Positions 5,661 to 64,000 of a stretch of 64,000 nt of DNA are shown piece by piece. Numbering within the stretch: the first letter of the stretch is position 1; each line of letters begins with the position of its first letter. The notes below the pieces were generated by a model. It ran no database searches and was not told the DNA's origin. It saw only the letters and a list, made by a program, of their open reading frames with translations. Both the position numbers and the translations under genes were made by a program. The DNA comes from a phage: assembly GCA_018093385.1 (NCBI GenBank), contig GCA_018093385.1_4808.1, one strand, 5' to 3'.

Positions 5661-7994
5661 TTATTTCGCTGATTTCAGCGCGGCTATCTCTGCCTCTAGT
5701 GATTCAACCTTTTTCATCAACTCCTGCACCACGTGCATCGTGTCAAGAAGCATTGGAGTTGTGTCTAGTTGTTTTTGTTCAACCTCTACGCCTTCGCTCG
5801 GATAGAATTTCACCGTTTTTACATACAACGGGTCAATAATCTCTGCTTGTTGAGCGATGACACCCCTTCTTACCCTTTCCTTTTCATCATTGTTGTAAAT
5901 AAATGTCACATATTCCAACGATGAAAGGTTGCTCCATGCTTTTTCAACCGTTCCTGGCTGTATGTCATGCTTCAAATTCTCATCAGAGATGGCATTCTTT
6001 TGAAGAGTATAAAAGCTATCTGATCCAAGAATTGATACAGAGAAAAACACATCATGAGAGTTAGGCTGTATGTTCATCCTTGTCTGGTACTGCGCATTAT
6101 CATCTCCAACGACGAGCCAAGTGCCCTGCGCAAAACTTCCGTTATTGTTGTGGATCAAACCGTGGTGAAGCGTTGTGGCATAACCTGTATCAACCTGTTG
6201 ACCGCCGCTAAAAAGACTGTTGAAAGCATAGTTTTGACCCATTGACTGTCTCACCGTTGCATAGGTGCCGATTCTTGTTCCAGTCTCACTCCAAGACATT
6301 AAGCTTCCATATCTCGCGGCGAATCTGTCGCTGCTAAGAGTTCCTGCATCATCAAATGCAAGGTCTTTAGTCACCCCTTTTGTTTTATTGTACACAGACA
6401 GTATTGCATAATAAAATCCATCCATGTATGCATCGCATCGCAATCCGGCATCAGCTTCAACAACAGTACCAATTTTGTATTGTGCCCTTACTTGCCCTGA
6501 AGACCCCTTAACCCCAGAGCCTGGTCGAACAGAATCCGCATTGATAACTGACCATTGCGTATTCGCGGCAACAAAGCCACCAGATGCACGAATCACCCAA
6601 ACACCGACAAAGTTGCGCGGCACGATTTCAGCCGCTGATCTTCCGTATACAGGGCTTGATCGAGAAGCGTCAAAGTTTGTTTGTATGAATCTTGAACCAG
6701 AACCTGCTGCTGCTGGAGAGTCCCCAGAAGTGATCGACTGAAAAGCGCCATTAGTCGCCACCTGACTTGGCGCAGAAGCCAACGTGACCATTGTGCGCGG
6801 CGCGGAGTAAGTTATATTTGGTGCACCTGACTCAGAAACGACTCCATTTGATGATGGATTGCCTCCATCACCTCGACCGAACAGGGCCTGAATAGAACCC
6901 GTCTGCACGCCGTTTCGGTCCGGCACACGAAATGTTGTCGTTCCGTTACCTAAAGAGTATTTACCGCGTTTCGCTGGGTCCGCTAACCAATCTGCATCTG
7001 CAATAGGTGAAAGCATTTGCGCATACGCCCAAAGTTCAGGCCAGTCAGCGCGGTTTAACAACTGCCCATCAGCAACGACTTCATACGGTTGAATATAAGC
7101 ACGGCTGTCGCGTAAGTGGAAGTCACCGACGCCATAGTTCATAACGCCGTTCATACTTGGTCCAACGGTGCCTGTGTTTACTAAGTTCTCAACCCAACGC
7201 TTGGTCGCGGCATCATGATCGTTTACTGGGTCACCAGCAAGCGGTGTTGCACCTTGTGGACGAATATTCAACCATGCTTGCGCATTGTCGGCTGACCCTG
7301 TGCCGCCCATAGAAGTCGGAACGATGTTTTGATCAGCGACTGTGCCAAATCCAAAAGCGGACTTCATACCCTGAATGGTAGTTTGGCCTGTGCCGCCGTT
7401 GGCGACTGGGATTATGCTTGACTCGGAATAAATCATGACCCAAGGAGACCACGTGCTATTTTGAGCGTTGAATCTTCTTTGGTAAGTATTGTTAATGGAA
7501 TATGATGTGTATTTTTGAATGCAACTTTCGGTCGATACTCCTGTTTGCAACACCTCTAAGACTCCTGCTTGTTCAACAGGATAGTTCAATCCAAAAGAGG
7601 CGGCGCCATCAGAGTTCTGATAATATTGCCCAAACCAGCTGCCGGTAAGAGCATTAAGATTCATGCCGGAAGGAACAGTGCCAAAATTTCGCAAGGTATT
7701 GGTCAAAGTCGCAGCAGTTGTTCGAATGGAAAGCATGTCACCAGCCGCCCATGCACGCGCTGCAGTTCCTTCCTGCGCACGCTGCACGGTTAGCACGTTT
7801 CCAACTACGGCTGTTACTGTGACGATTTCAAATTGGAGGCCTGTTGCAGCGTCGACGATTGTCGCCACTACACGCTCGTTCGCGGCCAAGGTCGGAAAGC
7901 CCGACCCTGAGCGGATTGTGATTGTGGTGTCTGAAGTCGTCGTTGGCTGGGCAAGCGCGACCTCAAAGTTGTTTTTGAATATTAGCCTTGGCAT
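5661..7994 (-). CDS. Tail fibre/tailspike protein with C-terminal intramolecular chaperone (peptidase S74-like) domain
   Basis: C-terminus LKHDIQP...GVIAQQAEIIDP...coiled-coil tail matches the self-cleaving chaperone module; Gly/Ser/Thr-rich body. Confidence 0.7.
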   Translation of the reverse strand: MPRLIFKNNFEVALAQPTTTSDTTITIRSGSGFPTLAANERVVATIVDAATGLQFEIVTVTAVVGNVLTVQRAQEGTAARAWAAGDMLSIRTTAATLTNTLRNFGTVPSGMNLNALTGSWFGQYYQNSDGAASFGLNYPVEQAGVLEVLQTGVSTESCIQKYTSYSINNTYQRRFNAQNSTWSPWVMIYSESSIIPVANGGTGQTTIQGMKSAFGFGTVADQNIVPTSMGGTGSADNAQAWLNIRPQGATPLAGDPVNDHDAATKRWVENLVNTGTVGPSMNGVMNYGVGDFHLRDSRAYIQPYEVVADGQLLNRADWPELWAYAQMLSPIADADWLADPAKRGKYSLGNGTTTFRVPDRNGVQTGSIQALFGRGDGGNPSSNGVVSESGAPNITYSAPRTMVTLASAPSQVATNGAFQSITSGDSPAAAGSGSRFIQTNFDASRSSPVYGRSAAEIVPRNFVGVWVIRASGGFVAANTQWSVINADSVRPGSGVKGSSGQVRAQYKIGTVVEADAGLRCDAYMDGFYYAILSVYNKTKGVTKDLAFDDAGTLSSDRFAARYGSLMSWSETGTRIGTYATVRQSMGQNYAFNSLFSGGQQVDTGYATTLHHGLIHNNNGSFAQGTWLVVGDDNAQYQTRMNIQPNSHDVFFSVSILGSDSFYTLQKNAISDENLKHDIQPGTVEKAWSNLSSLEYVTFIYNNDEKERVRRGVIAQQAEIIDPLYVKTVKFYPSEGVEVEQKQLDTTPMLLDTMHVVQELMKKVESLEAEIAALKSAK

Positions 7995-62909: not shown

Positions 62910-62994
62910 ATATCAAAAAGGTGAGCTAAATGCTTGCCTTTTCTTTTATCAATACTTATACTCTTTTCATCAAGACTAACAAGTGAGGTGAATT

Positions 62995-63312
62995 ATGATT
63001 TACTTAGGAATGGACGAGGGTGCTTACAAAGACCTTTCAAGGGTGCCAAACGTTAAGTTGGACACAGCTGTACACATCAAGCCTTGGCCAATCGCCCACC
63101 CAGACGTTGTTGTCCCAGTCGCTCCTGGCACGCGTTACGTGGCCATTGATGACGACGGAGTCATTCACTGTTATTCGGAAAAACCAAAGTATATAGAGCA
63201 ATATCACGGTTGGTTTTTGGACGAGCGTGCAATGGCGCGTTACTGCGGCGAAGTCGGTCTGGAAGGCTGGAGCTTCGAGGCTAGTGAATCGTGTGTCGAG
63301 GTGCAATTATGA
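62995..63312 (+). CDS. Hypothetical protein
   Basis: 105 aa, GAGGTG SD. Confidence 0.5.
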   Translation: MIYLGMDEGAYKDLSRVPNVKLDTAVHIKPWPIAHPDVVVPVAPGTRYVAIDDDGVIHCYSEKPKYIEQYHGWFLDERAMARYCGEVGLEGWSFEASESCVEVQL

Positions 63313-63527
63313 ACGCCGCGCTGGGTAAGTTGCCATTCAATAAGCGTAATGAGTTGCGCATGGTATCGCGCTTTCAACAAACGCATTTATCACTAATCAA
63401 GATTGCAAACAAGGCATACTCTCTAAATTGTCCTGAAGAAGAATGGAAAGAATTGAATGAGCGTCGTAAACAATTACAACATGCTGCATTCAAGCTGCAG
63501 CAATATGCTATGGAGTATGCAAAATGA
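63309..63527 (+). CDS. Hypothetical protein
   Basis: Internal ATG with GAGGTG SD. Confidence 0.4.
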   Translation: MNAALGKLPFNKRNELRMVSRFQQTHLSLIKIANKAYSLNCPEEEWKELNERRKQLQHAAFKLQQYAMEYAK

Positions 63528-63808
63528 AGATGCAAAGATGTCCCCATTGCTTGTCCACGATGCGGCTTACTGCTGAAGAATATTTACATCACGTTAACGT
63601 TTGTGATGCTAATCCTGAAAACTCGACACGTTACTATTATCATTATCATGCGGAAGCAGAAGACGGCTCAGGCGCAACAGGCATCGTCACTACGAAAGAA
63701 ATGGTGATCACAAAAAAGGCGTATGAAAGCCTGCTGGATACAATCAAGGAAGTGTCTGGCAAAGAAATAGTCTGCATTAAATCTTTATCTTTCTTGCACG
63801 AGGTGTGA
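63524..63808 (+). CDS. Small Cys/His zinc-binding-like protein, paralog 1
   Basis: N-terminus MKMQRCPHC...HHVNVCDANPENS. Confidence 0.45.
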   Translation: MKMQRCPHCLSTMRLTAEEYLHHVNVCDANPENSTRYYYHYHAEAEDGSGATGIVTTKEMVITKKAYESLLDTIKEVSGKEIVCIKSLSFLHEV

Positions 63809-63809
63809 A

Positions 63810-64000
63810 ATGAGAATGAAGCGTTGCCCTTACTGCCACGATGTGATGCACCTTCCACACGAAGAGTTTGTGCAGCACATGACTAACTGTGATAAGAATC
63901 CTAATAGCGAAAGCCAACTTGAAGAAAGAATGTTCTTGGTGTCATTCAAAGCTTCTGCTTATGAAGTGCAACGTTCTTACGGCGCACCAAGTACGATTTA
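63810..64000 (+). CDS. Small Cys/His zinc-binding-like protein, paralog 2 (3' partial at window edge)
   Basis: N-terminus MRMKRCPYC...QHMTNCDKNPNSE parallels previous gene; GAGGTG SD. Confidence 0.4.
   Translation, partial: MRMKRCPYCHDVMHLPHEEFVQHMTNCDKNPNSESQLEERMFLVSFKASAYEVQRSYGAPSTI

Follow-up and report, generated by a model that had tools for sequence, protein, structure and literature searches.

Small zinc proteins that act on host machinery are familiar from phages and bacteria. Ogr of phage P2 and Delta of phage P4 activate RNA polymerase, YacG of Escherichia coli inhibits gyrase, and Com of phage Mu is a zinc-finger protein that binds mRNA and activates its translation. Ogr/Delta, Com, and YacG all use four cysteine ligands, arranged in zinc-ribbon or treble-clef-like motifs. 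The Ros/MucR proteins carry a single C2H2 finger with basic flanks within a larger globular DNA-binding fold, and single-finger DNA binders such as these need their basic extensions. Among eukaryotes and animal viruses, the finger classes of the nairovirus Gn tail, GTSF1, and ZNF512 bind RNA or DNA, or are presumed to do so, and the UBZ4 finger of the Rad18/WRNIP1 type, with the pattern C-x2-C-x11-H-x3-C, binds ubiquitin. Here we describe two adjacent genes, A and B, that lie at the end of a 64,000-nucleotide stretch of phage DNA (the window) and whose products are a genus-restricted pair of ORFans with a recognizable C2HC finger.

Over its final 1.1 kb the window matches Escherichia virus TH35 at 99.8% identity and other members of Wifcevirus at 82 to 94%; the genus comprises E. 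coli and Shigella myoviruses whose genomes measure about 68 kb. TH35 (locus L001) served as the reference for sequence past window position 64000, and genomic context was taken from the annotated relatives WFC, WFH, Bas98 to Bas101, FEC19, ECML-117, Ro157lw, kaset, and Mansfield. Gene A occupies positions 63524..63808 on the + strand and encodes 94 amino acids (MKMQRCPHC...NVCDANPENS), laid out as a C2HC zinc finger (residues 1 to 36) followed by a small strand-strand-helix-strand domain (residues 37 to 94). Gene B begins after a spacing of 1 nt, on the same strand, and occupies 63810..64000 before running beyond the window (MRMKRCPYC...TNCDKNPNSE), so that 63 of its 127 codons are visible. 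The original prediction gave the correct coordinates and opening sequences for both reading frames, and its view that B is cut by the window edge was borne out, the last complete codon being the 63rd. The extension past 64000 that it called for was run through TH35 and yielded the complete B protein of 127 amino acids, in which the 63 residues visible in the window are identical. In public records A and B appear as hypothetical proteins and nothing more, and some of the annotations are wrong. In Bas98 (PQ850608, L007 2501-3170) no CDS is annotated for the intact A; in its place are an ORF of 35 amino acids and a B whose upstream extension brings it to 156 amino acids; in FEC19 (MH816966, L005 2501-2884) B is annotated from Met13, which drops the CPYC knuckle, and A is annotated from 12 codons late; and in both ECML-117 and Ro157lw B is annotated from Met3.

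The N-terminal modules of A and B present the same predicted zinc ligands, C6-x2-C9-x13-H23-x3-C27, spanning 63539..63604 in A and 63825..63890 in B (both + strand), and in both proteins C27 is followed by D/E-x-N-P. Residues C6, P7, C9, H23, C27, and P31 were invariant in a comparison of nine A orthologues with 31 B clusters and with a more distant protein, P0033, that is described below; C6, C9, H23, and C27 were the only Cys/His positions to be invariant across A, B, and P0033. Every B sequence in the 31 clusters that covers the ligand positions keeps them; C27 was invariant, and C6, C9, and H23 were each present in at least 90%, a shortfall that matches the two N-terminally truncated entries. 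The remaining histidines of the module (H8, H10, H14, H17, and H22) are variable, unlike the ligand H23. Each protein has four cysteines in all, three in the finger and one in the C-terminal part, the last of which is not conserved between the two. In A and B taken together, M13 and E18 were at least 90% conserved, L15 was invariant, and position 20 was always aromatic (F or Y) when the alignment was read by eye. The ligands and hydrophobic core of the finger are fixed and its surface positions vary, with the variation clustering before and inside the helix at positions 14, 16-17, 21-22, and 24-26.

An AlphaFold model of the B finger, built on a 31-sequence alignment, has strands at residues 4-5 and 12-13 and a helix at residues 17-26 (pLDDT 74 to 83). 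The model places the cysteine pair in a beta-hairpin, H23 within the helix, and C27 at the helix end. The corresponding part of A, for which a two-sequence alignment was available, was modeled with low confidence (pLDDT 32 to 46). Judged by the order of its ligands and by the predicted hairpin, helix, and core, the module looks like a classical-type beta-beta-alpha C2HC finger, as a structural class, and we infer that both A and B bind zinc. The description of the two products as "zinc-binding-like" in the original prediction is well supported by the invariance of C6, C9, H23, and C27 and by their placement in the predicted hairpin-plus-helix; the remote family matches were likewise all to C2HC/CHHC-type families or to DUF7501, every one of them below threshold.

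The most consistent of these remote matches was DUF7501 (PF24333), which consists of small haloarchaeal proteins such as Haloferax volcanii HVO_1252. The profile was matched by 13 of 15 A/B family members over residues 3 to 28. The best score (24.8 bits, E value of 2.5e-5) came from a P0028-type B, a divergent lineage discussed below; window B scored 17.3 bits and A gave no match, and the gathering threshold of 27 bits was not reached. Only the finger aligns, over profile positions 10 to 35 of 58. We found no functional literature on DUF7501; HVO_1252 itself appears as a down-regulated gene (PMC12091111).

The best scores against other Pfam families were 18.2 bits for ZNF512_C2HC (PF21276, E value of 0.002), 17.4 bits for zf-Di19 (PF05605, E value of 0.005), 13.9 bits for Nairovirus_Gn (PF20726), and 11.5 bits for zf-C2HC_2 (PF13913), all of them below the gathering thresholds of 26.5 to 27.5 bits for these families. 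Sequence searches of the PDB with A, a B profile, and a finger profile returned nothing significant. The sub-threshold matches there included the Gn-tail finger of CCHFV (2l7x, E value of 0.031), GTSF1 (6x46, E value of 0.15), and ZNF512 (2ctd, E value of 0.57), and in all three the ligands line up with those of the finger; matches to RNase H2B and to carbonic-anhydrase-like entries were discarded as spurious. The nairovirus Gn (2l7x) and ZNF512 (2ctd) fingers resemble those of A and B in the Cys-x2-Cys...His-x3-Cys order, in the CP[YxH]C knuckle, and in having their ligands in register, and their hairpin-plus-helix topology is also the one predicted for B. However, these matches are non-significant (E values of 0.002 to 0.6, and 13 to 18 bits against approximately 27), and the spacer is 13 residues long in A and B compared with 11 in the 2l7x alignment. 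Moreover, the nairovirus Gn and ZNF512 fingers occur as pairs or arrays in large eukaryotic or animal-virus proteins, whereas A and B each have a single finger that opens a phage protein of 94 to 127 amino acids. Since no curated threshold was reached, A and B are not filed here under DUF7501, ZNF512_C2HC, zf-Di19, or nairovirus Gn.

The small prokaryotic zinc proteins offer a different kind of likeness. Ogr/Delta, Com, and YacG share with A and B a length of 60 to 130 amino acids, stabilization by zinc, and a position among regulatory or early genes (the last two predicted in the case of A and B). Their motifs are of the Cys4 type, and for this reason they are analogies of kind only. Searches of Pfam, PHROGs, and NCBIfam gave no profile match of A or B to the Ogr/Delta, Com, YacG, or TraR/DksA-type families, and membership in the C4 groups of Ogr/Delta, Com, and TraR/DksA was rejected because the third ligand in A and B is a histidine. 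Ros/MucR is similar in that one classical-like finger is found in a small prokaryotic protein, but the finger of A and B is of the C2HC type, both proteins have a neutral to acidic character, and neither has a Pfam match to the Ros/MucR family. Membership in UBZ4 was rejected as well: the spacer of A and B is 13 residues long (only P0033 has 11), and there was no match to a Pfam UBZ family. E. coli is without ubiquitin, and the defining function of UBZ4 therefore cannot apply.

Beyond the genus, very little resembles these proteins. When A and B were used for word-seeded searching of 5.8 billion proteins, only Wifcevirus-like contigs were retrieved, and a mixed A+B profile, run exhaustively with HMMER against 1.84 billion cluster representatives, retrieved three proteins, namely the A representative, the B representative, and P0033, the last with a marginal E value of 3.5e-4. 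P0033 is a lysine-rich protein of 161 amino acids with the finger CPYC-x11-H-x3-C-SENP. It is encoded at L009 1288-1773 on an AT-rich, 3-kb metagenome contig of small ORFs (ERZ23498500 scaffold_92341), two genes upstream of an ORF that, by eye, is possibly ATP-grasp-like. We set P0033 aside as an informative relative, as it has only the finger in common with A and B and its neighbors on the 3-kb contig are uninformative. A protein search with a 44-column finger profile gave six candidates, none of them scoring, and a scan of IMG/VR with the finger profile gave four Wifcevirus contigs only. The best PHROG profiles against A and B had non-significant E values of 0.045 to 0.09, NCBIfam gave a single spurious match (E value of 0.07), and PADLOC gave none. 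Domain searches found no helix-turn-helix or other nucleic-acid-binding domain in A or B. A paper on synthetic vB_Eco4M-7 contained nothing on either protein.

Within the genome, A and B are clearly each other's closest relatives. Both open with M-[KR]-M-x-R-C-P-x-C...H-x3-C-D-x-N-P, and BLASTP of A against full-length B gave 15 identities in 36 positions (E value of 4e-11), confined to residues 1 to 36. A profile-profile comparison with hhalign gave an E value of 4.2e-12 over residues 1 to 35. The window and 6 kb of TH35 together gave 1,402 ORFs in six frames, among which A matched only B and B only A (E value of about 1e-7), and neither a motif scan nor phmmer and hmmsearch searches revealed a third paralogue in that sequence. 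Past the finger, local alignment of the C-terminal parts gave a score of 24, compared with a mean of 21.7 for shuffled sequences (p = 0.26), and hhalign of the C-terminal profiles was likewise not significant (P = 0.13). Inspection by eye suggests a likeness between IKEVSGKEIVCIKSLS and IKREYNRDITEVKVLS, which are also aligned by MAFFT; C-terminal homology by sequence was nonetheless rejected, given the non-significant shuffle and hhalign results. The original prediction had regarded A and B as a duplicated small protein and had named, as the outcome that would tell against this, a similarity limited to a few N-terminal residues. The observed similarity exceeds that, for the two proteins have a complete 36-residue zinc-finger module in common, yet it does not extend through the whole proteins. 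The idea of a duplicated protein is thus upheld only in part, because similarity at the sequence level does not reach past residue 36. In the 108 nt that A and B have in common, 54% of positions are identical, and only 39% at third codon positions, which argues that the duplication is old and that there has been no recent homogenization.

The predicted structures carry the comparison further. The AlphaFold model of A is independent of that of B and was built on a two-sequence alignment. Past the finger it has a strand at residues 37-45, a second strand at 50-57, a helix at 64-78, and a third strand at 82-91 (pLDDT 62 to 84). The B model past the finger has a strand at residues 39-50, a disordered loop at 51-73, a strand at 76-83, a helix at 90-107, and a strand at 111-122, of which the rest of the loop (to residue 73) and the later strand, helix, and strand lie past the window edge. 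The two models agree in the order of their elements and in their strand-helix-strand spacings, and their chief difference in length is the loop between the first and second strands, which is long in B and contains indels. These models may be read as showing a small, two-layer alpha/beta fold that is common to the C-terminal parts of A and B. The matching strand-strand-helix-strand order makes duplication of the whole gene likely, although not proven, and it is from topology alone that we infer kinship of the two C-terminal parts. In a Foldseek search against BFVD the only matches besides the Ro157lw orthologue were small uncharacterized phage proteins.

Two stretches of these C-terminal parts stand out. 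The B loop (residues 51-73; 63960-64000 and, beyond the window, L001 7061-7130) is predicted to be disordered, with pLDDT below 50, and contains indels of 3 and 2 amino acids. Its dN/dS of 0.27 is the highest in the two genes, and it is the most lineage-specific stretch of B. In A, residues 36-42 (63629-63649) read RYYYHYH, a Tyr/His-rich sequence in the first C-terminal strand that is invariant in all nine A orthologues and that might form a second metal or ligand site.

A and B are the third and fourth genes of a five-gene unit, encoding products of 105, 72, 94, 127, and 86 amino acids, which belongs to a + strand arm that consists of small hypothetical genes and is downstream of a primase-like P-loop ATPase. 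Gene 1 (62995..63312, + strand, 105 amino acids) matches phrog_1972, a family of unknown function, with an E value of 1.5e-17; this was the only match in a PHROG search of the neighboring genes, with none for gene 2 (63309..63527, + strand, 72 amino acids), whose annotated equivalent is WFC_00093. The genes meet at ATGA at 63309, at ATGA at 63524, at TGAaATG at 63806-63812, and, in TH35, at GTGA between B and gene 5. Adjoining genes overlap at stop and start or leave a gap of 1 nt, which implies that the five products are tightly coupled in translation. Shine-Dalgarno sequences are present at both genes, GGAG lying 8 nt 5' of the A ATG and GAGGTG lying 5' of the B ATG.

The upstream edge of the five-gene unit is marked by a terminator-like hairpin, AAAAGGTGAGCTAAATGCTTGCCTTTT, at 62916..62942 (+ strand), which is annotated as a terminator in WFC and WFH, and the same 27-mer occurs again just past the fifth gene, outside the window (TH35 L001 ~7556-7582). 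A sigma-70-like promoter candidate, TTGCCT-17 nt-TATACT, identified by match to the consensus only, is located at 62934..62962 on the + strand (L001 6035-6063), where it overlaps the 3' arm of the upstream hairpin, and it is conserved across the genus. The downstream hairpin copy is followed by TTGCCT-16 nt-TATACT. The combination of hairpin, TTGCCT/TATACT element, and a TCATCAAG motif is found on both sides of the unit (62916-62975; L001 7550-7632). In 11 of 12 aligned Wifceviruses the upstream hairpin/promoter copy is near-invariant, CWP003 being the one that differs, and the 500 nt 5' of gene A, at approximately 84% identity between TH35 and Bas99, are far less conserved than this copy. The repeat looks like a terminator-promoter module that could double as a recombination site for cassette swaps. 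The conserved sigma-70-like promoter candidate and the bracketing of the unit by terminators suggest transcription by host RNA polymerase, probably early, and the placement of A and B in an early-gene block, as originally proposed, is plausible. Approximately 3.8 kb past the window, the same arm in TH35 also carries a 178-amino-acid ORF (L001 10689-11225) with C29 followed by C54-x2-C57, possibly metal binding, which was unrelated to A and B by phmmer.

The two genes differ in their distribution. The phage collection contains 29 Wifcevirus records; B occurs in every one of them and is a core gene. A was present in 13 of the 29, or in 9 of 25 by our own count once RefSeq/GenBank duplicates were removed, and is an accessory gene. 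In genomes without A, gene 2 is joined straight to B, and the difference is exactly 286 bp; the sequence AAATGA stands at the start of A and at the start of B. The B protein of Bas99 is 100% identical to that of TH35, yet Bas99 has no A, which indicates recent and repeated gain or loss of A as a unit.

Selection on both genes was estimated by the pairwise Nei-Gojobori method from nine A and thirteen B sequences. The dN/dS of A was 0.06 overall, 0.16 in the finger, and 0.03 in the C-terminal domain, and that of B was 0.15 overall, 0.07 in the finger, 0.27 in the loop region, and 0.11 from residue 76 to the end. These low values argue that A and B are both protein-coding genes under purifying selection, and the values for the finger give no sign of diversifying selection or of an arms race. 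One B lineage departs from the rest in its finger. P0028 is a B-family cluster from a 68,986-bp contig with the finger MRTKRCPYCLKTMQLSVESFMDHVASCDKSPDFSDQ. By our own count this finger is approximately 50% identical to other B fingers, and the C-terminal part of P0028-type B is largely conserved, so that the finger may evolve or be exchanged semi-independently; the P0028 sequence suggests a mosaic or fast-diverging module.

The abrupt end of the sequence similarity at residue 36 admits a reading other than duplication, in which the C-terminal domains of A and B are unrelated and the copying or exchange, through recombination or gene conversion, was confined to the 36-residue finger. The P0028-type B, with a divergent finger on a largely common C-terminal part, is the kind of protein that such exchange would produce. 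Against this stand the independent models, which arrive at the same strand-strand-helix-strand order with matching spacing, and the exact start-to-start tandem register of the two genes, with AAATGA at both starts; third codon positions, moreover, are saturated, hence no recent conversion. We regard an exchange of the finger alone as somewhat unlikely, though a serious contender.

The joint explanation that we favor, if tentatively, is that A and B are old tandem paralogues, two-domain zinc-finger proteins that bind a host macromolecule and are made from an early, coupled operon. Under this explanation the pair would be old and diverged and confined to Wifcevirus, each protein consisting of a 30-residue N-terminal beta-beta-alpha finger (ligands C6, C9, H23, and C27; core M13, L15, and F/Y20) and an alpha/beta domain. 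The five-gene operon between the two hairpins would be translationally coupled and read by host RNA polymerase, probably early. The zinc-stabilized finger would provide a recognition surface, its exposed positions differing between A, B, and the B lineages, and the conserved C-terminal domain would provide a second, the two domains together binding and modulating the host macromolecule. B would serve a genus-wide function, with A as an optional, shortened second copy, whose gain or loss as one exact, gene-sized piece would come about by recombination between the homologous 5' ends. The reality of the genes, the homology of the finger module, the conservation of its ligands, the distribution, and the operon layout are shown directly; whole-gene duplication, expression timing, and the class of target are matters of deduction. 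A role in binding a host factor is plausible. The suggestion in the original prediction that such proteins are candidate inhibitors of host factors is speculative, its natural functional analogues being the Ogr/Delta, Com, and YacG proteins introduced above.

As to what the target may be, A has a pI of 6.0 and a net charge of -3, B has a pI of 6.95 and a net charge of about 0, and both fingers are neutral to slightly acidic. Given this neutral to acidic character and the absence of basic flanks, a protein target appears likelier than a nucleic acid. The competing view is that A and B bind phage or host DNA or RNA and act as transcriptional or translational regulators of infection. The nearest solved or curated fingers (2l7x, 6x46, and 2ctd/PF21276, all sub-threshold) belong to nucleic-acid-binding classes, which favors this view, and so does the variation of the finger, which is concentrated just ahead of the helix and inside it (positions 14, 16-17, 21-22, and 24-26), where classical fingers contact bases. 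The net charges and the fingers without basic flanks, of the kind that Ros/MucR-like binders require, argue the other way, as does the failure of domain searches to find a helix-turn-helix or similar domain, and we consider nucleic acid binding unlikely. That the Cys/His pattern is fortuitous, or that the ORFs are not functional genes, is barely credible, for although no curated family threshold was reached and public annotation is hypothetical only, both genes are under strong purifying selection, the ligands are kept in all A orthologues and in all B sequences covering them while other histidines vary, the genes have Shine-Dalgarno sites and coupled start and stop codons, and B is found in every genome of the genus.

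Wifceviruses, which are poorly understood, are reported to replicate unusually fast, with a very short latent period, and to resist most tested defense systems without a known protection mechanism (PMC11990801). Bas98, which has A, and Bas99 to Bas101, which do not, are all reported to be insensitive to the tested defense systems, with EcoP1_I as their common exception, and no phenotype separating A-bearing from A-less BASEL phages is given (PMC11990801). A more far-reaching proposal, which we think improbable, is that this is the first coliphage case of a C2HC finger in the style of eukaryotes and animal viruses serving as a swappable recognition module, with A traded among co-infecting Wifceviruses and tuning the binding of a variable host target. 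If that were true, the target would be, for example, a defense protein or a component of the transcription or translation machinery, and the finding might bear on the broad defense resistance reported for the genus or on the very brief latent period reported for it (PMC11990801).

Phages commonly carry small zinc-finger ORFans, whose presence implies no function, and what is gained here is a modest improvement in annotation and a testable lead rather than a discovery. The presence or absence of A in the tractable BASEL phages, Bas98 as against Bas99 to Bas101, offers a natural comparison, and mutants of the ligands C6, C9, H23, and C27 suggest themselves. For Wifcevirus, in which the small-ORF arm is almost wholly unannotated and B is strictly conserved within that arm, recognition of the C2HC finger provides the first structural handle on A and B.
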